Positions 4,169 through 40,269 of a stretch of 64,000 nucleotides of DNA are shown here, one piece after another; positions within the stretch are counted from its first letter, which is position 1; each line of letters begins with the position of its first letter. Under the pieces are notes generated by a model that saw only the letters and a program-made list of their open reading frames with translations, searched no databases and was not told the DNA's origin. The position numbers and the translations under genes were made by a program. Origin of the DNA: a virus (Duplodnaviria > Heunggongvirae > Uroviricota > Caudoviricetes). The DNA lies in the IMG/VR virus record IMGVR_UViG_2654587674_000003. The stretch is one strand, 5' to 3'.

Positions 4169-7100
4169 TTAATCCTCAAGCAGAGCATCCAGCGACTGGT
4201 CATTAATAGTTGTGCTCGCACGTGGTCGCGGCTGCGGCTGCGATGTTTTGACAACATTATCCGGATCGCCTTTTGTATTGTTCTTGTTCACATTCAGCAG
4301 ATCGTTCAGGATAGAGCAGATGTTATCCAGCGCCTTCAACATAGCAGGATCGTTATTTATAGTGTCAGTAGTTAATGGTTGTCTTATTCCGCTTCGTGCG
4401 AGATCGGTTACAGTAGGGAGTTGTGGCGGCATAGCAAGAAAAGGTTCTTGCACAGCTGAAGCAGAGCCAAATATGGCGTTATTGGCACCAGTTGCTATTC
4501 CCCTAATGCTATTAGCGGTTTGTTGAATCCCCCCATTCAGCCAGTCTCCAACATTTCTTGTTAATGGGCTAATAGCTCGCGCAATCGCACTATTCTGCCC
4601 AGTAGACTGCATTACAAGATCGTTCAATATCCCTGTACTATCAATCCCCCCAACAAGTCGTGAAAGGTTATCGCCAACGGCAGGAATTACTGCGGTTCCT
4701 GCCTGTTTAAGCCCTGACACCGTGGAATCAAATAGCGAACCAAAGAAGCTCTTATCCTCACCTGTAACCACCTTGTAGCCGTTGTCATAAATCTGCACAT
4801 CACTTGGTGCCGTGATAGTTCGTTTTCCAGAGGTAACTACTGGCGCAGCTCCCGACATAGCCTGGTTGATTGCTAGAGCCTGCTCCTGCTGTGGGGGTTT
4901 CGGTGCTGGCGCTGCAGACGAAAAGCCCGCCATAGCCTGGTTGATTGCTAGAGCCTGCTCCTGCTGTGGGGTTTTCGGTGCTGGCGCTGCAGATGAAAAG
5001 CCCGCCATAGCCTGACTGATTGCTAGAGCCTGCTCCTGCTGTGGGGATTTCGGTGCTGGCGCTGCAGACGAAAAGCCCGCCATAGCCTGGTTGATTGCTA
5101 GAGCCTGCTCCTGCTGTGGGGTTTTCGGTGCTGGCGCTGCAGACGAAAAGCCCGCCATAGCCTGACTGATTGCTAGAGCCTGCTCCTGCTGTGGGGTTTT
5201 CGGTGCTGGCGCTGCAGACGAAAAGCCCGCCATAGCCTGGCTGATTGCTAGAGCCTGCTCCTGCTGTGGAGTTTTCGGAGTAGAAGGGGATACTTGATCT
5301 CCCGGAAGTAGATCAATGATTTCTGTATCGTGATTAACAGTGCGTTTTTGTTGTATGGCTGTTGCGATATCAGCCACTTGAGAAGCTTTTTTAAATCCAA
5401 AAGATTTACCGGTTAAGCCGGATATCTTTTCAGTAAGAGCCTGATCCATTCCTTTCGCTTTTTCGGAAAGCGAAGATATAGAACCAAACGAAGTAGCCGA
5501 CGCAAAATCCTTTACCAGGTCCAGACTTGTTCCAGCAAGGCTGGTAGCCGCGCCGCCAAATAAATTACTTGCACCACTGATTCCGCTTTCATTTATTGCG
5601 ATTAACCGCTCAAGCAAACTCGATGGAGAGCCGGTATTAACATCAGCGTTCTCTGGATTAATCGGTTGTGGTTGGTTACCTTTTTTTTGTGGCTTTTTGG
5701 CGGCCTGGGCATGTTGTGCAACTTCAATTGGCTTAGGTGTTGCTGTTGGAACTGCATTCAATACAGGTTGTGCTGGAGATGTACCATCAGCATATTTCAC
5801 CTTGCGACCAACGCTATATTGCGAATCACGAGCAATTAGTTGACCGCCATTCTCTTGCTGAATTTTATTAAGCCGCGCCAATGTTTCATCGGAGAACCGC
5901 CCTTCCCAACGACCAGTATTTGCGTTGAATGCCCCAAGAGCATTCTTTATGAACTCATTGTTAACCGCCGGGTTTCCACCTTCTTTCGTCGCTATTGCAC
6001 GAACTAATTGCGTCATAACCTCTGGGTTGCTGACGTCTATTTTTTCATTAGGCGAGACGCCAAGATATTTACTGACGTTATCAATATATTGATTGGTATT
6101 GTTCTCATTTGGCGGCGCCCATTTGGAAATGATGCTTGATACCGTCTGTAACTTCTGATGTCCTGCTGCGGCACTGGTGCCGTTGTAATAGCTTGACACT
6201 TGGTTTGCCAACGCCCTGATCCCTTCTTCAGGCGTGTTGAATCGAGCAAAACGCTGTTCACCTTTTGCATTCGGTGCTTCCAGCGTCGCCCCTTCCTGAT
6301 TGGCGAAAACAAGGTTCCCGAGATTATTATTCCGATAATTGCGGTTTTTAGCGTTGCTGCCACCAATATTCAGATCCGCAGCAATGGTGTTACTGGTAGG
6401 CGCATTAAATTCAGCCGGGGAAGTATACCCGTGCTCACCAACACCATCTTCACCATCACGCCCGCCTTGTAGCTGTCGGCCCAGGTTATTAATTGCGGTT
6501 ACCGTTTGCTTGGTGCCATCTTCAACGGCTTTCTTAACCTGCGCAGTGCCTTCGCTGCTTGATGAGAACGATTCTTTTAGGCTGCTGAATACGGTTTTTG
6601 TCGTGTCTATAGAACTATTTATGTCACGAGCAATATCTCCAGTGTCAAAATTCTGAAGTTTTTCACCTGCCCCTTCAAAGCCTAACGCAGAAATCCCTTT
6701 GCCTATTAGGTTGGTTGCACCCGACACTAAGCCGCCCATATCAAGCACATTAGCTGCTGCATAAGCGGTTTTTTGCTGTGTGGATACAGCATTATCATCA
6801 CTTAAGCCAAAGGCTGCCTTTTGTGCCTCTGTATCAGTGTAACCGTCTATAGCATCGTATCCTGCCATAGCGATATTGCCGATAATTGGGATTCCTCTGA
6901 CGCCAGCCCTTACGGCTGCACCACCGGCAGCTTTTAATGCGATTTTTCCAGCCTCTTTCTTTGCGAGATTCTCCCCTGTTGCGATAGCTACTTTCTCGGT
7001 AGTTGCTTCAGTTGCAGCTTTGGCTATACCGGTACTAGCCGTTTTTCTGGCCCCTTTATCTGCAACTTTCTCCGTCGTTTTTGAAGCATCACCAATAGCC

Positions 7101-8455
7101 TCTTTTCCGGCGTTGCGGGGTTGGTGATTTTCATTTTTAACGGAATTATTTTTGCTATTTTGTTGTTTTTTCTCAACTTTATCTTTGGGGGTTGATGTTT
7201 CGCCTTTTTCCGTTGTAGTTGTTTTAATTTTGTCCTTTTTGGCTTCAGGTCTTTTATCAGCTCTTCTATCCTTTTTAGACTTGTTTTTGTTTCGATTTGT
7301 TTTATTGCGATTTGAGGTAATGCGATCTCGGTTTCGACTAAAAAGATCACTTAACTTAATTCCATTACCTTTTGTTTTCATAGATTTACGGAGTTTTACT
7401 ATTTCATCTGAAACATTCTCCAACTCATCTATGATTCGAGCGTCATTGGATTGAAGAACTTTGGTTTGTTCTTCAACTACTCGTACTGACTTTGCTTCAA
7501 TCGCGTTGTTAAATGCTGCTGAGGAAGCCGAATTTTTTTCATTTCTAGGCGCAGGATAAGTGATTGCTGCTGGTTTCGATTCAGATGTCGATAAATTGCT
7601 GTCCCCTTTATCACTCCACTCTTTAAGCGATTCTGCTTTCCCGGTGATCTCTTTTGTAATGTCATAAATGCCGCGAGCCGCCATCCATAACGGGCCGCCA
7701 GCGCCAACACCGGCAGCATTTGTTATGGCATCTTCACCTGCAGACTGGTGATTATCCATTCCCATAATTGAGCCAAGCTTTCTGAGAAAGCCGGCTTGTA
7801 ATTTTGCGTCGGCTTTACGTGCGTTCTGCAATTCTTTTTTTCTGGCTACATCCTCATTGCTTTTTTGGGATACAAAACGTCCATTACTATCCCGCAGCGG
7901 GCCTTTTAGACTTTGGGGGGATTGTGGTTCAAGAGGGGCTGAATTAGCAGCTACCGGTATAAAACCGTCCGATTTTCGGATGGTCTGACGTGATTGCACG
8001 GAGCGAACACTTTCTGGTGTGTTCGTTGCAACGATAGAGCGGTCCACGGTTTGGTTTAACGGTGTCCTTTCCTTTTTAGCAGGGAGACGTTTTTTATATG
8101 GGTTAGTTTGGACATCTCTAACGCTATCAGATGTACTTTGCTCGTACTCTTTACGCCTGCGTGATAGTCTGTTGCTAACTCTGCCTTGCCTTTCGGCCTG
8201 TTGAGTTATGGTGCTTGCCCCAGAAAGAATGGCATCTTTGATCTCAGCAAGAGCCTTAAGTTCGTTTGTGCTCGCCCCCTGAATAGCGTCAATTATTGCG
8301 ATACGGTCTTTATTCTCTTTCAAAATAACCTCTCTTTTACCAGCGGCGACAACGTTTCCCGGCTTGAGCTTTGTATTTTTCTTCCAGGGCTTTTGACATA
8401 TGGAGTGCTCGCCATTGTGGCAATTGTTCAACGTCACTAACGGGCTGATATCCAT
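4169..8455 (-). CDS. Tail tape-measure-like / injection protein (1428 aa)
   Basis: Very large ORF upstream of baseplate genes; Ala/Gly-rich helical segments, K/R/N-rich low-complexity tract, tandem 25-aa repeats. Confidence 0.6.
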   Translation of the reverse strand: MDISPLVTLNNCHNGEHSICQKPWKKNTKLKPGNVVAAGKREVILKENKDRIAIIDAIQGASTNELKALAEIKDAILSGASTITQQAERQGRVSNRLSRRRKEYEQSTSDSVRDVQTNPYKKRLPAKKERTPLNQTVDRSIVATNTPESVRSVQSRQTIRKSDGFIPVAANSAPLEPQSPQSLKGPLRDSNGRFVSQKSNEDVARKKELQNARKADAKLQAGFLRKLGSIMGMDNHQSAGEDAITNAAGVGAGGPLWMAARGIYDITKEITGKAESLKEWSDKGDSNLSTSESKPAAITYPAPRNEKNSASSAAFNNAIEAKSVRVVEEQTKVLQSNDARIIDELENVSDEIVKLRKSMKTKGNGIKLSDLFSRNRDRITSNRNKTNRNKNKSKKDRRADKRPEAKKDKIKTTTTEKGETSTPKDKVEKKQQNSKNNSVKNENHQPRNAGKEAIGDASKTTEKVADKGARKTASTGIAKAATEATTEKVAIATGENLAKKEAGKIALKAAGGAAVRAGVRGIPIIGNIAMAGYDAIDGYTDTEAQKAAFGLSDDNAVSTQQKTAYAAANVLDMGGLVSGATNLIGKGISALGFEGAGEKLQNFDTGDIARDINSSIDTTKTVFSSLKESFSSSSEGTAQVKKAVEDGTKQTVTAINNLGRQLQGGRDGEDGVGEHGYTSPAEFNAPTSNTIAADLNIGGSNAKNRNYRNNNLGNLVFANQEGATLEAPNAKGEQRFARFNTPEEGIRALANQVSSYYNGTSAAAGHQKLQTVSSIISKWAPPNENNTNQYIDNVSKYLGVSPNEKIDVSNPEVMTQLVRAIATKEGGNPAVNNEFIKNALGAFNANTGRWEGRFSDETLARLNKIQQENGGQLIARDSQYSVGRKVKYADGTSPAQPVLNAVPTATPKPIEVAQHAQAAKKPQKKGNQPQPINPENADVNTGSPSSLLERLIAINESGISGASNLFGGAATSLAGTSLDLVKDFASATSFGSISSLSEKAKGMDQALTEKISGLTGKSFGFKKASQVADIATAIQQKRTVNHDTEIIDLLPGDQVSPSTPKTPQQEQALAISQAMAGFSSAAPAPKTPQQEQALAISQAMAGFSSAAPAPKTPQQEQALAINQAMAGFSSAAPAPKSPQQEQALAISQAMAGFSSAAPAPKTPQQEQALAINQAMAGFSSAAPAPKPPQQEQALAINQAMSGAAPVVTSGKRTITAPSDVQIYDNGYKVVTGEDKSFFGSLFDSTVSGLKQAGTAVIPAVGDNLSRLVGGIDSTGILNDLVMQSTGQNSAIARAISPLTRNVGDWLNGGIQQTANSIRGIATGANNAIFGSASAVQEPFLAMPPQLPTVTDLARSGIRQPLTTDTINNDPAMLKALDNICSILNDLLNVNKNNTKGDPDNVVKTSQPQPRPRASTTINDQSLDALLED
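4856..5290. repeat. Tandem repeat, about 6 x 75 bp, inside the tape-measure gene
   Basis: Unit CATAGCCTGGTTGATTGCTAGAGCCTGCTCCTGCTGTGGGGTTTTCGGTGCTGGCGCTGCAGACGAAAAGCCCGC restarts at 4856, 4931, 5006, 5081, 5156, 5231 with 1-3 substitutions; encodes PAPKTPQQEQALAISQAMAGFSSAA. Confidence 0.9.
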
Positions 8456-38311: not shown

Positions 38312-39253
38312 TTAACTAACAATCCAGTCCATAGCAATAACATCCTCTGGAGCTAAATCAATAGCATGGATTTTCCCGTCACGGATGGTGCGCCAGTGCT
38401 TTCGTGATCCACCTTCGGGCCACACCCATATACCTTCAGGCCAGGAAGAACGACGACACACTGTTGCGTATCCAGTCCTGATCTTCTCTCTGACGGTATG
38501 TAGTGACAGATTATCCTTTGGGCTTTCAGGCACAGGATGGTGGATTGCCTGAAACATCCCCATCTTTGGATGATACCAGCGTTTATTGCGTGGTTCTGCC
38601 TCCGACATCACCTGCTTAAAGGCTTTCCGGAAGGGGGCCAGGGCCACAATGGAACGTCGCGCAAGCAAACCGTCGGGAGTTAAAAACTCATGCGTATCTG
38701 TGGGGATCCGGTAAGCGTTGACCAGGTTGCGGCATTTGGCTTCAGTCAGGCCGCATTTCGCCGCTAACTGGCGATAGCCAATGTAGCCTTCCGGAATATT
38801 GCCTTTCTTTATTTGCTCGACGGTTTCAGCGACTTTGGTCACTTGTGCCGATACTTCGGCTACCTGGGCATTAACGGCGTTGATCCGGCGTTCATGCTCA
38901 AGATGCATTTGCGCCATTTCAGCCAGAATTTCGGCTTTTGATTTTAACTGTACCCGGGCATTCTCCAGTTCGCGCCAGCGGTCCACCAGCCGGGCGGTGA
39001 ATTCGGGAGAGAGCTGCGCGACGACGACAATACTATCGCGCTTGCCTTGCTCGCCTTCGAAGAAATAGGCTTTTGTGTATTTATTAGGGCTAAGTGATTG
39101 ATTATTCTCAACTGTAGCCAATGGCGTATGTTGGATAACTCCTTTAGCAACAAGTCTTTCGATGCTGCGTTTAACATCAGAGTGACGACTTCCCACCAGT
39201 TCCGCGATCTCAATGCTGGTCATTGTCGCTTTTTGAGAGATGGACAGATTCAT
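38312..39253 (-). CDS. Rha-family phage regulatory protein / antirepressor-like (Ant-like)
   Basis: N-terminal SIEIAELVGSRHSDVKRSIERL matches the Rha N-domain as recalled; follows icd-like gene. Confidence 0.65.
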   Translation of the reverse strand: MNLSISQKATMTSIEIAELVGSRHSDVKRSIERLVAKGVIQHTPLATVENNQSLSPNKYTKAYFFEGEQGKRDSIVVVAQLSPEFTARLVDRWRELENARVQLKSKAEILAEMAQMHLEHERRINAVNAQVAEVSAQVTKVAETVEQIKKGNIPEGYIGYRQLAAKCGLTEAKCRNLVNAYRIPTDTHEFLTPDGLLARRSIVALAPFRKAFKQVMSEAEPRNKRWYHPKMGMFQAIHHPVPESPKDNLSLHTVREKIRTGYATVCRRSSWPEGIWVWPEGGSRKHWRTIRDGKIHAIDLAPEDVIAMDWIVS

Positions 39254-39468
39254 CAGTGCACCTCCACGCAGTTCATTGGCAGATTCCAGTAATTGAGGAT
39301 CTCCATCGCATCAAGAGTGAAGCGAGCAGCAAAAATGCAGGGTTCTTCGGGAAGGTATGAGCGCGCCTCTGCTTCGGTAGCAGCCATTACGCAGATATAA
39401 AGGTGTTTTTGGCAGGAATAGAAACGCCAGATAAATTCAGAATGAGTTGGGGTAGGGATAGTAGCCAT
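39253..39468 (-). CDS. icd: Icd-like host cell-division inhibitor family small protein
   Basis: 71 aa; AATEAEARSYLP...IFAARFT resembles the Icd-like family signature as recalled; position before ant. Confidence 0.5.
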   Translation of the reverse strand: MATIPTPTHSEFIWRFYSCQKHLYICVMAATEAEARSYLPEEPCIFAARFTLDAMEILNYWNLPMNCVEVH

Positions 39469-39652
39469 ATTGGCAGCCTCCTTTGACTAAGTTAAGGAGC
39501 TACCGCGTGAGGTTCCAATCTCAATGGCGGTAGCACTGACTGGGTTGGAACTACCGGCGTCAAAGGGAACCGGCCTGCCTTTCGGCAGCCCAGCCAGCAC
39601 TACCATTGATCTCTGAGCTAAACGCTAAGTATGGCTGTGCGATGGCATGACA
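39469..39652 (-). ncRNA. Structured leader upstream of icd; candidate c4-like regulatory RNA region
   Basis: Several stem-loops (GCTACCGC...GCGGTAGC; CTGCC-TTTC-GGCAG) between a terminator and icd; analogy to the P1 immunity-I layout is inference. Confidence 0.3.
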
Positions 39653-39676
39653 CAAAAAAAGACGCGTTCGGCGTCT
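39653..39676 (-). terminator. Intrinsic terminator on minus strand within the icd leader
   Basis: AGACGC-CGAAC-GCGTCT followed by TTTTTTT (minus strand). Confidence 0.55.
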
Positions 39677-39780
39677 GTGTCGCCTTTGACATTATCCGGG
39701 GTTCCAATCCCGGCACCCGTTTTTCTAAGGTGCCGTAGAAATATACCCCACGATAATGCCATGGCGCAACAGTCAGTATT

Positions 39781-39948
39781 TTATGCTTTGGCGGATTTCT
39801 TCCGGGCTTGCTTGCAGGCGTAGGCCATTGCTTTAGCTTTCACTTCATCCAGCTTCCCGGTGATCACTTCTTTTCCGAGAGTGACAAACCAGTCATAGCA
39901 ACCGCCAGTAATGTTCTTGATTTGAAAGTTGAGGTAGCGAACAGTCAT
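39781..39948 (-). CDS. 55-aa small protein ORF upstream of the icd leader
   Basis: ATG 39946-39948 with GGGGG 8 nt upstream; below track size cutoff; competes with plus-strand ORF 39808-40026. Confidence 0.3.
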   Translation of the reverse strand: MTVRYLNFQIKNITGGCYDWFVTLGKEVITGKLDEVKAKAMAYACKQARKKSAKA

Positions 39949-40269
39949 TTTGACACCCCCAGCGCGAGTAAAGAATGCAGATTATCGCGTGAGTGGTGGA
40001 CGACGAGTGATGGGAAAAGACTGTAGTTGTTCATAGTGTAGTGACTCCTTGCTTTCGGAGCCGCCATTGACTGTTCCACGGTCTGGTGGCGGCGCAATAA
40101 AGGCTGGAACACCGTGAGTCAACGGGGGCTTTTCAGCCACCTATATTGCACCGCCATAGGTATAGCGGCGGCAATAATACGAAAAACTAAACAGTTTGTC
40201 TCAAAAAGTTGACCGGTGTGCCAATCGGTAGTGAATGTACATCGGGGAAATTTACAATTCAACTTAAAA

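Follow-up and report, generated by a model that had tools for sequence, protein, structure and literature searches.

Probable P1/P7-type immunity-I module with a C4 antisense RNA in a D6-like phage-plasmid

In phages P1 and P7, the immunity-I (immI) operon runs in the order P51b - a1 b1 - c4 - a2 b2 - icd - ant1/2. The C4 RNA of these phages is a substrate of RNase P (PMC2190699) and blocks ant through pairing around the ribosome-binding site (PMC12197685). A related arrangement, isrK - STnc1160/orf45 - anrP, has been described for Gifsy-1 in Salmonella. Experiments in Salmonella showed Hfq binding by IsrK and trans-activation of the read-through mRNA, and translation of the coupled antirepressor is turned on when IsrK is supplied in trans (PMC4825925). 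Pairing between the middle hairpin of IsrK and a sequence about 130 nt downstream is supported by compensatory mutants, G28A/C162U and G31A/C159U (PMC4825925). The emphasis of that work is on activation by IsrK and not on repression by the C4-like RNA, and over-expression of STnc1160/orf45 left growth arrest unrelieved (PMC4825925). Hershko-Shalev et al. (2016) regarded IsrK as a structural homologue of seqA of the satellite phage P4, and likened the C4-like STnc1160 to CI (PMC4825925).

We analyzed a locus in a 64-kb stretch of DNA (hereafter the window), which is a D6-like E. coli phage-plasmid. In D6 itself this locus is present with 95% nucleotide identity, orf83 being annotated as Icd-like and orf82 as anti-repressor Ant; the D6 record contains no RNA genes here and places an antisense ORF (orf84) over the leader. 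The locus is very probably a P1/P7-type immI module with a C4 antisense RNA. There is nothing unusual about the immI-like element as a representative of a system known for a long time, and the c4-icd region of D6-like plasmids has been reported previously, in a passage that itself gives no target sites, specificity alleles or IsrK identity of the 5' leader. A first reading of the letters alone (the sequence-only reading) had proposed a layout consisting of a 55-aa ORF, about 105 nt, an intrinsic terminator, a leader of about 185 nt, an icd-like gene and a Rha-type antirepressor; all of these elements are found in their proposed places on the minus strand. The features of the main module are as follows.

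39769-39740, minus strand: candidate sigma-70 promoter of the immI-like operon, aligned with the annotated P1 P1c4/P51b hexamers
39769-39764, minus strand: promoter -35, TTGCGC, with an 18-nt spacer to the -10
39745-39740, minus strand: promoter -10, TATATT, with a predicted start near G39733
39733-39655, minus strand: IsrK-type small RNA (Rfam RF01394, isrK), equivalent of the P1 a1/b1 leader
39708-39701, minus strand: a1, AUUGGAAC, in the loop of hairpin 2 (after hairpin 1) of the IsrK-type RNA
39690-39683, minus strand: b1, GUCAAAGG, single-stranded in the IsrK-type RNA
39676-39654, minus strand: intrinsic terminator from the terminator scan, stem AGACGC/GCGUCU, 5-nt loop, U7
39610-39523, minus strand: C4 antisense RNA (Rfam RF01695)
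39604-39526, minus strand: predicted mature C4 of 79 nt, its ends placed by alignment to the annotated 77-nt P1 c4
39566-39559, minus strand: b', CCUUUGAC, exposed in the loop of C4 hairpin 2
39551-39545, minus strand: a', GUUCCAA, exposed in the C4 junction
39519-39477, minus strand: target region in the icd 5' UTR, with exact complements of a' and b'
39519-39512, minus strand: a2, AUUGGAAC, complement of a', in the loop of a small hairpin
39487-39477, minus strand: b2, GUCAAAGGAGG, complement of b', containing the icd Shine-Dalgarno sequence (SD)
39468-39253, minus strand: icd homologue, 71 aa, 63% identity to P1 Icd
39253-38312, minus strand: Rha-type antirepressor gene (ant), 313 aa, with PF09669 Phage_pRha and phrog_63 matches

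The covariance-model search for a c4-type RNA, proposed as a check in the sequence-only reading, recovered the Rfam C4 family at full length (model positions 1-87 of 87) with 77.1 bits against a threshold of 45 (E=2.4e-13). The predicted C4 consists of a long closing stem, hairpin 1, hairpin 2, a junction and a tRNA-like 3' tail, GCCA. Its minimum free energy (MFE) is -46.7 kcal/mol (z=-5.5), 0/200 shuffles were as good, and the MFE structure is the Rfam consensus fold; together with the C4 and isrK models scoring above threshold, this bears out the earlier description of the leader as structured. All co-variation counts were made on 55 related leaders (alignment A1). In this alignment the C4 closing stem is paired in 99.8% of cells with compensatory changes in 9/16 pairs, hairpin 1 has compensatory changes in 4/5 pairs, and the stem is conserved together with an NCCA tail as an excisable unit. 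C4 is probably excised from the read-through transcript by RNase P, at the tRNA-like stem with its GCCA tail.

Upstream of C4, the Rfam covariance model for isrK is matched over its full length (positions 1-77 of 77) with 61.3 bits, for a threshold of 50. The fold of this IsrK-type RNA has a z-score of -2.5 and its helices co-vary. We rejected the leader as a member of the Rfam c4-a1b1 family (RF03163): it obtained 22.4 bits at 39746-39693, against a threshold of 46.7 that is passed by P1, P7 and the other D6 module. This region is the functional equivalent of c4-a1b1, but it fits the isrK model, which also matches the a1/b1 region of P1 and P7 below threshold. A scan of viral contigs with a pattern for IsrK hairpin 2 recovered five true loci among mostly chance matches in GC-rich DNA. 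The leader had been called internally terminated; the intrinsic terminator is indeed present, but it forms the 3' end of the IsrK-type a1/b1 RNA, upstream of C4. The distance between the 55-aa ORF and the terminator is 104 nt (39780-39677), in agreement with the 105 nt or so first estimated. However, this interval is not a 3' UTR: it holds a candidate promoter and the separate small RNA that owns the terminator. Between the U-run and the icd ATG the leader measures 185 nt (39653-39469), as proposed.

The candidate promoter was not flagged by a simple consensus scan, because its -35 is weak. Nevertheless, the -35 TT and the -10 TA are invariant in the 55 leaders, where the hexamers are conserved and the spacer is variable. 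No match to the P1-type C1 operator ATTGCTCTAATAAATTT with up to 3 mismatches was found near the promoter or anywhere in the window; GCTCTAATAAATT is present upstream in the P1-like relatives of the alignment. Control by the primary repressor, as in the P1 scheme, is therefore unsupported at the D6-like locus. An operator for the D6 repressor could have a different sequence.

Pairing of the leader RNA with sites upstream of icd, the second check proposed at the outset, was found and co-varies across relatives. The a' sequence is an exact 7-nt complement of a1 and a2, and b' an exact 8-nt complement of b1 and b2; the four complementary sites were jointly reached in 0/2000 dinucleotide shuffles. 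Across the 55 leaders, 97.8% of cells are paired in a1:a' plus b1:b' (compensatory changes in 13/15 pairs), compared with at most 57% in slid controls, and 95.2% in a':a2 plus b':b2 (12/15 pairs). For the intramolecular helices the figures are 98% of cells and 23/45 pairs. Unconstrained RNAduplex energies were uninformative, because C4 is fully unfolded in them. One could propose that the leader is an inactive relic or that its complementarity is fortuitous, icd and ant being expressed or silenced in some other way, and the lack of a C1 operator in the window and the promoter missed by the consensus scan would fit this proposal. It is nevertheless very hard to credit: it is contradicted by the three-way compensatory evolution of 15 + 15 intermolecular and 45 intramolecular pairs, besides the 2000 shuffles that never reproduced the four sites and the promoter hexamers conserved next to a varying spacer.

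We scored 14 a/b specificities among the relatives: cognate combinations were fully complementary in 14/14 cases and non-cognate ones in 0/182, and a fifteenth specificity, outside this set, was read by eye. Two a alleles and two b alleles occur in all four combinations, and a natural alternative b' allele reads CCUUUUGC instead of CCUUUGAC. From these alignments, the a and b sites appear to behave as independently exchangeable specificity modules, and the natural set would comprise at least 15 mutually orthogonal antisense/target pairs. In one relative (L039), a1 is mismatched to its own a', so that a1 pairing must be dispensable at least sometimes.

In all 14 scored specificities b2 sits exactly on the SD. 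This points to translational control, and bears on a P4-type scheme in which C4 would pair with nascent a1/b1 and a2/b2 and enforce termination of leader transcription at the internal terminator. We consider such a scheme improbable. The C4 and a1/b1 target motif do belong to one Rfam clan (CL00128), the terminator is located directly 3' of b1, and Hershko-Shalev et al. suggested that the C4-like STnc1160 might modulate termination at the IsrK terminator (PMC4825925). However, their co-expression test did not support this idea (PMC4825925), and the terminator found here is a self-sufficient GC stem with U7 that overlaps neither a1 nor b1. Of the premature termination by an antisense RNA put forward in the sequence-only reading, the C4 module thus stands, but the intrinsic terminator is not the stop that C4 controls.

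Both genes called downstream of the leader were confirmed. The icd product aligns with P1 Icd at 63% identity over 59 aa (E=6e-28); the gene has tblastn matches in P1, P7, D6 and others, and belongs to phrog_1426. The antirepressor has the Phage_pRha domain (PF09669) at its N-terminus (residues 11-98; 32.8 bits, cutoff 29.9), and its PHROGs match is phrog_63, 'anti-repressor Ant' (E=1.8e-61). BLASTP against P1 Ant1/2 gave no real alignment (best E=0.19); we assume that this protein of a different family plays the same role as P1 Ant. The start of ant overlaps the icd stop by 1 nt as UGAUG, and not as AUGA. No second icd copy was found within the window, and the other icd/ant module of D6, near repL, is absent from it or lies outside it. 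The first 80 nt or so of icd are rich in C (31%) and poor in G (9%), a composition similar to that of a Rho-loading site. With the C4 match, the co-varying pairing, the Icd homologue and the Rha-type antirepressor, the parallel originally drawn with P1 immunity I and its leader-derived antisense RNA holds. What the present analysis directly supports is the assignment of the RNAs to their families, their folds, the complementarity and co-evolution of the four sites, and the identification of icd and ant.

By analogy with the work on P1/P7 and Gifsy-1, from which we take RNA processing, the block of translation, polarity through Rho and the function of a1/b1 as decoys, an immI-type circuit would operate as follows. 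A constitutive promoter at about 39769-39740 would drive transcription from about 39733, and the intrinsic terminator would stop most transcripts, producing an IsrK-type RNA of about 79 nt with the decoy sites a1 and b1. In read-through transcripts C4 would probably be excised by RNase P as an antisense RNA of about 79 nt, whose a' and b' could pair with a2 and b2 of the same or another operon transcript. As b2 includes the icd SD, such pairing would leave icd untranslated. Translation of ant would be coupled to that of icd through UGAUG, and untranslated icd would expose its C-rich, G-poor stretch; lost coupling and Rho-dependent polarity would then prevent antirepressor synthesis, and lysogeny and superinfection immunity would be kept. 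In P1, the premature termination caused by C4 is reportedly Rho-dependent and located inside untranslated icd (Biere, Citron and Schuster 1992). Finally, a1 and b1 may compete for C4, whether they are carried by the short RNA or act in cis within the read-through transcript; this would set a threshold and could allow ant to be switched on.

Positive control of the Gifsy-1/IsrK type could instead be the main logic of the locus. IsrK acting in trans would open an inactive read-through mRNA and turn on the coupled ORFs; the IsrK segment would pair in cis with C4, itself mainly a part of the mRNA and not a free repressor. We regard this as possible, though not the likelier option. The 5' RNA passes the isrK threshold, the whole-leader MFE structure pairs the IsrK middle with the C4 interior, like 'structure A' (PMC4825925), and in Gifsy-1 IsrK in trans raises anrP translation at least 100-fold (PMC4825925). 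By position mapping, the pairing of the Gifsy-1 IsrK middle hairpin appears to correspond to a1:a'. Moreover, an orf45-like ORF (39606-39487, minus strand) begins at a conserved AUG at the 5' end of C4. However, this ORF ends before the icd SD and is coupled to nothing, and the equivalent frame of P1 has 14 codons in our own reading of the sequence, so that the ORF is not conserved. No IsrK-type downstream ORF read through C4 and AUGA-coupled to the antirepressor was found, the coupling here being between icd and ant, and icd has its own SD, inside b2. Conservation of the C4 stem and NCCA tail as an excisable unit also speaks against C4 as mere mRNA, and a purely structural cis role of C4, with IsrK as the sole regulator, would leave the a2/b2 co-variation, as strong as that of a1/b1, unexplained. 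Positive control is compatible with the C4 repression circuit outlined above, the sole difference being which RNA is limiting.

A separate mini-operon, upstream of the icd/ant leader and not part of it, has the 55-aa ORF as its distal gene. The features of this mini-operon are as follows.

40161-40082, minus strand: C4-2, a divergent C4-like RNA (Rfam C4, sub-threshold)
40122-40116, minus strand: C4-2 hairpin-2 loop, UUGACUC; the 3' tail of C4-2 is ACCA
40111-40105, minus strand: C4-2 junction, UGUUCCA
40078-40072, minus strand: UGGAACA, complement downstream of C4-2, in a hairpin loop
40047-40042, minus strand: GAGUCA, complement downstream of C4-2, in the SD of the 29-aa ORF
40034-39945, minus strand: 29-aa leader ORF (MNNYSLFPSLVVHHSRDNLHSLLALGVSK), read from the sequence
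39948-39781, minus strand: 55-aa ORF, phrog_7786 (unnamed family)

The 29-aa ORF is preceded by the SD AAGGAG (40050-40045) and its stop overlaps the start of the 55-aa ORF (AUGA), an overlap kept in relatives with in-frame indels. In one relative (L110), a 61-aa ORF replaces the 29-aa ORF and contains a stretch, ..EAETEKEARRLV..CFFAG.., that looks Icd-like by eye. The 55-aa protein has no Pfam match and only an unnamed family in PHROGs. A search of 5.8 billion proteins retrieved only 16 near-identical homologues, on D6-like plasmids of about 90 kb, and a scan of genome contigs just two spurious 12-residue matches. Its AF2 model is confident (pLDDT 85.7) and contains four strands and a helix, with no fold match at E<=0.001 by Foldseek against PDB and BFVD. 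As a candidate Coi-like C1 inactivator it was rejected, having no similarity to P1-type Coi.

C4-2 obtains 40.2 bits, short of the Rfam C4 threshold of 45 (window-wide E=3.4e-4); it is C4-like, below Rfam membership, and the evidence for it is weaker than that for the main module. Its MFE is -35.7 kcal/mol (z=-5.6) and its consensus fold shows the same architecture; in two relatives (L109/L112), C-G replaces a U.U mismatch of the stem. Both downstream complements were jointly reached in 7/2000 shuffles. We tentatively suggest, as a somewhat doubtful possibility, that D6-like phage-plasmids carry two back-to-back C4-type riboregulators, C4-2 gating the 29-aa ORF, to which the gene of the 55-aa protein is coupled through AUGA. 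Judging by its position, this protein would be a new small effector of the lysogeny or antirepressor type. Both C4 RNAs share the a-site core GUUCCA:UGGAAC in this allele combination, and cross-talk could occur.

The D6-like locus should be annotated with two to three RNA genes (IsrK-type, C4 and possibly the second C4-like RNA), and antisense calls of the 'orf84' type should be removed. The data connect the literatures on P1 c4, a repressor, and Gifsy-1 IsrK, an activator, which describe one module from opposite ends. With 15 co-evolved, mutually exclusive a/b specificities and free recombination between a and b, heteroimmunity groups could be predicted among P1-, D6- and Stx-type phages, and the catalogue could supply orthogonal antisense parts.

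Among known systems, the satellite phage P4 (CI RNA, seqA/seqC) also has a leader-processed RNA with complementary sites both upstream and downstream. However, P4 CI causes transcription termination and P4 has no icd/ant, whereas the downstream site of the D6-like locus is a ribosome-binding site. Gifsy-1 likewise has an IsrK-type sRNA that ends at a terminator of its own and is partly read through (PMC4825925), a C4-like RNA directly downstream, pairing of the IsrK middle hairpin with the C4 region and a small ORF translationally coupled to the antirepressor. In Gifsy-1, which has no icd, the reading frame of orf45 (first AUG at transcript position 107) appears to run through the C4 region itself, whereas the D6-like locus has a separate icd with its own SD after C4. 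The Gifsy-1 study also dealt with IsrK activation and its downstream effect on the antiterminator AntQ (PMC4825925); no antQ equivalent lies beside the D6-like locus, whose upstream neighbour is a Ref-like nuclease. In contrast to P1, the D6-like locus lacks a P1-type C1 operator and a downstream kilA-repL, its Rha-type antirepressor is unrelated to Ant1/2, icd and ant overlap as UGAUG instead of AUGA, and its 5' leader fits the isrK model (61.3 bits) better than the P1-derived c4-a1b1 model (22.4 bits). The a/b sequences are UUGGAAC/GUCAAAGG here and UUGACAG/GUUAGUGA in P1, and the D6-like specificity is therefore probably heteroimmune. Nevertheless, the element order and the C4 fold are identical to those of P1/P7 immI, and the annotated P1 record carries a1, b1, c4, a2, b2, icd and ant in the same layout. 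As in P1/P7, b' lies in the hairpin-2 loop, a' in the junction and b2 on the icd SD, the promoter hexamers align, and a homologous icd (63%) provides the small ORF coupled to the antirepressor.

On the minus strand, the icd-like region of the window carries the following genes and signals:

40858-40280, minus: upstream neighbour, a Ref-like RecA-dependent nuclease gene (PF16786, E=1.3e-34)
39948-39781, minus: 55-aa ORF, by ORF reading
39676-39654, minus: intrinsic terminator (AGACGC-CGAAC-GCGUCU then U7), 104 nt 3' of the 55-aa ORF
39468-39253, minus: 71-aa ORF, icd homologue (63% identity to P1 Icd, E=6e-28)
39253-38312, minus: 313-aa ORF, antirepressor (Phage_pRha domain and phrog_63)

The layout proposed by the sequence-only reading (55-aa ORF, gap, terminator, leader of about 185 nt, icd-like gene and Rha-type antirepressor) is accurate and every element lies where it had been placed; the distance from the U-run to the ATG of the 71-aa ORF is 185 nt. 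The stop codon of this ORF overlaps the start of the 313-aa ORF (UGAUG). The 313-aa protein has a Phage_pRha domain at its N-terminus that exceeds the Pfam cutoff and matches phrog_63 ('anti-repressor Ant', E=1.8e-61). Both gene assignments of that reading hold.

Escherichia phage D6, a plasmid prophage of the P1-like kind, shares 95% identity with the segment 39200-40000, and E. coli plasmids of about 92 kb match the surrounding 20 kb at 97%. The D6 record labels the orthologues of the two genes orf83 ('Icd-like') and orf82 ('anti-repressor Ant') and annotates no RNA genes. D6 RefSeq orf84 is a protein ORF called antisense to the leader (window 39647-39823, plus; D6 locus L001 3178-3477, minus), and this call is probably spurious because the RNA genes sit on the opposite strand. 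Elsewhere in the D6 sequence (L137), outside the window, the tRNA genes for Ser, Thr and Asn (6084-7850) are on the minus strand according to ARAGORN and Rfam and on the plus strand in the record, and a tRNA-Met (6084-6159) is missing from its annotation.

An Rfam scan of the whole window gave exactly two above-threshold matches, isrK and C4, both inside the icd leader; they are listed here together with a candidate promoter:

39769-39764 (TTGCGC) and 39745-39740 (TATATT), minus: candidate promoter upstream of the IsrK start, from conservation and P1 alignment
39733-39655, minus: IsrK-type small RNA (Rfam isrK, 61.3 bits, threshold 50, full length)
39610-39523, minus: C4 antisense RNA (Rfam, 77.1 bits, threshold 45, E=2.4e-13, full length)

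The covariance search that had been suggested for a c4-type RNA is thus positive, and the 'several stem-loops' of the leader are mainly the C4 RNA, whose fold is stable (-46.7 kcal/mol, z=-5.5; z=-2.5 for the IsrK part). From the isrK match, the intrinsic terminator is the 3' end of the IsrK-type RNA. None of the 55 related leaders departs from the TT of TTGCGC or the TA of TATATT, and both hexamers line up with P1c4/P51b, the promoter annotated in P1. Since these hexamers and the isrK match occupy the 104 nt 3' of the 55-aa ORF, this stretch is promoter and small RNA rather than a 3' UTR. From an alignment with the 77-nt c4 annotated in P1, the mature C4 is predicted to span 39604-39526. Its stem ends in a tRNA-like GCCA tail, consistent with the RNase P processing known for the P1/P7 C4 precursor, a substrate of this enzyme (PMC2190699).

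Pairing sites were named after P1, using the annotated P1 record and sequence:

39708-39701, minus: a1, in the loop of IsrK hairpin 2, AUUGGAAC
39690-39683, minus: b1, in the single-stranded stretch 5' of the terminator, GUCAAAGG
39566-39559, minus: b', C4 hairpin-2 loop, CCUUUGAC
39551-39545, minus: a', C4 junction, GUUCCAA
39519-39512, minus: a2, in the loop of a small hairpin immediately 3' of C4, AUUGGAAC
39487-39477, minus: b2, including the icd Shine-Dalgarno sequence, GUCAAAGGAGG

When the flanks were dinucleotide-shuffled, a single site was matched in 1-4% of trials and all four jointly in 0/2000.

We then aligned 55 distinct leader sequences. Their sources were IMG/VR loci with a gene for an Icd relative, the phages P1 and P7, an Stx2 phage, and three further pattern-scan loci. 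The intramolecular helices are paired in 98.0% of cells, with both-side changes in 23 of 45 pairs (0/500 shuffles match; slid controls reach 35-44%). The long-range pairs a1:a' and b1:b' are 97.8% paired and compensatory in 13/15 pairs; for a':a2 and b':b2, the pairing upstream of icd that the sequence-only reading had proposed to check, the values are 95.2% and 12/15. Complementarity is complete for each of the 14 C4 specificities against its own four sites (14/14) and for none against any other set (0/182). This co-variation and specificity matching across relatives are strong evidence that C4 pairing with its sites is functional, and the co-variation contradicts and excludes the view of the leader as a relic. 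Control at the leader terminator, as in P4, is disfavoured by the position of b2 on the Shine-Dalgarno sequence in every allele scored.

The a and b sites recombine freely: with GGAAC or GAGAC as a and GUCAAAGG or GCAAAAGG as b, each of the four possible combinations occurs. The sole exception to matching is the P1-like locus L039 (IMG/VR), apparently a recombinant, where a1 is of the GAGAC type and mismatched to its own C4 a' and a2 (GGAAC type); this suggests that upstream a1 pairing is not essential. A fifteenth allele was read by eye in the more distant relative L140 (JGI, 1380-1680), in which the 55-aa gene has its own Shine-Dalgarno sequence, lacks the C4-like RNA and is followed by an IsrK/C4/icd module whose b allele, CCACUAAAG, differs again. 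Locus L110 (IMG/VR, 1133-1668) carries Ref, a C4-like RNA, a 61-aa leader ORF that resembles Icd by eye and then the 55-aa gene; the main icd/ant module is absent. L110 and L140 show that the module is mosaic. The Stx2 phage F039 (L002, 2521-3410) has an IsrK and C4 leader before a 215-aa ORF whose opening codons, MATI, are those of Icd, which suggests icd fusion or replacement in Stx2 phages.

While the present data show the RNA identities, the pairing sites and their co-evolution, C4 processing, translational block, polarity and the decoy role are inferred parts of the mechanism that we favour. The promoter would fire and most transcripts would finish as IsrK-type RNA; read-through transcripts would supply C4, which would then be excised and pair with a2 and b2, blocking icd translation. 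Expression of ant would rely on icd translation, through the UGAUG coupling and through a Rho-suited stretch exposed when icd is untranslated; this stretch is C-rich and G-poor (C 31%, G 9%). Dependence of ant on Rho when icd is untranslated is reportedly the P1 model of Biere et al. (1992). The sites a1 and b1 would serve as decoys, either in cis or as part of the short RNA, and would fix the switch point.

Upstream lies C4-2, a C4-like RNA that is divergent and the second one of this locus:

40161-40082, minus: C4-2, between the Ref-like nuclease gene and the 55-aa ORF (Rfam C4 40.2 bits, sub-threshold, E=3.4e-4 for the window)
40034-39945, minus: 29-aa ORF, whose stop overlaps the 55-aa ORF start (AUGA)

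C4-2 folds in the same architecture as C4, at -35.7 kcal/mol (z=-5.6), with ACCA at its 3' end. The junction of C4-2, UGUUCCA, has a complement in UGGAACA (40078-40072), part of a hairpin loop a short way downstream; its loop, UUGACUC, has one in GAGUCA (within 40050-40042), which lies in the Shine-Dalgarno sequence of the 29-aa ORF. Both complements arose jointly in 7/2000 shuffles. It shares the a-site core GUUCCA with the main C4 and is kept in D6-like loci, a stem U.U mismatch becoming C-G in two variants. A C4-2 module is plausible, but the support for it is much weaker than for the main one. Promoter-like sites precede it (40262-40234 and 40202-40174, minus; TTGAAT-17-TACATT and GAGACA-17-TATTAT), with hexamers conserved in relatives and variable spacers; a weak hairpin with U5 between them (40229-40203, minus) looks like a degenerate a1/b1-type element. 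The 55-aa protein is found only on D6-like plasmids of about 90 kb and is without family annotation. Its AF2 model, four strands followed by a C-terminal helix, is confident, and neither PDB nor BFVD yielded a structural neighbour. In some D6-like plasmids (L141/L142, 1672-2898) this gene carries at its 3' end an insertion of the IS200/IS605 type (TnpB, Y1 transposase), which alters the protein C-terminus and occupies the expected immI promoter position.

D6 carries another module, with no counterpart within the 64-kb window:

L137 21170-19986, minus: complete c4-a1b1/C4/icd/Roi-type ant, adjoining repL and a lysozyme gene

The a allele of this module is that of P1 (UUGACAG), whereas its b allele (ACUUACG) is new. 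The D6 paper puts ImmI beside a predicted peptidoglycan hydrolase gene, and because of this we infer that the window locus is the 'second region' of that paper; on this match, the c4-icd region of D6-like plasmids was already known.

The interpretation of the sequence-only reading, a parallel with P1 immunity I, is supported, with the internal terminator reassigned to the IsrK-type RNA. In P1 and P7, C4 pairs around the ribosome-binding site, which blocks ant, and it also sets heteroimmunity (PMC12197685); the specificity of the window differs from both. In contrast to P1, where ref is located elsewhere in the genome, a Ref-like gene lies just upstream; no P1-type C1 operator was found near the promoter or across the window; the Rha-type antirepressor is unrelated to that of P1 (no similarity to Ant1); and a pmgF-like gene takes the downstream place of kilA-repL. 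The Rfam isrK model gives sub-threshold matches in the P1 and P7 leaders, exactly over a1/b1 and the terminator-like hairpin, and a P1-derived c4-a1b1 model matches the window weakly (22.4 bits); from these reciprocal matches, IsrK and 'a1/b1' are the same part of the module. In Gifsy-1, IsrK ends at its own terminator with part of the transcripts reading through, and its middle hairpin pairs with sequence about 130 nt downstream, as supported by the compensatory mutants G28A/C162U and G31A/C159U (Hershko-Shalev et al., PMC4825925); judged by position, the mutated sites are a1 and a'. The stable processed RNA STnc1160, in a system that its authors compare to P4 seqA/CI (PMC4825925), occupies the place of C4. 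There, a small ORF to which the antirepressor AnrP is coupled has its translation switched on by IsrK in trans (PMC4825925), and an emphasis on IsrK as activator is compatible with the C4 mechanism.
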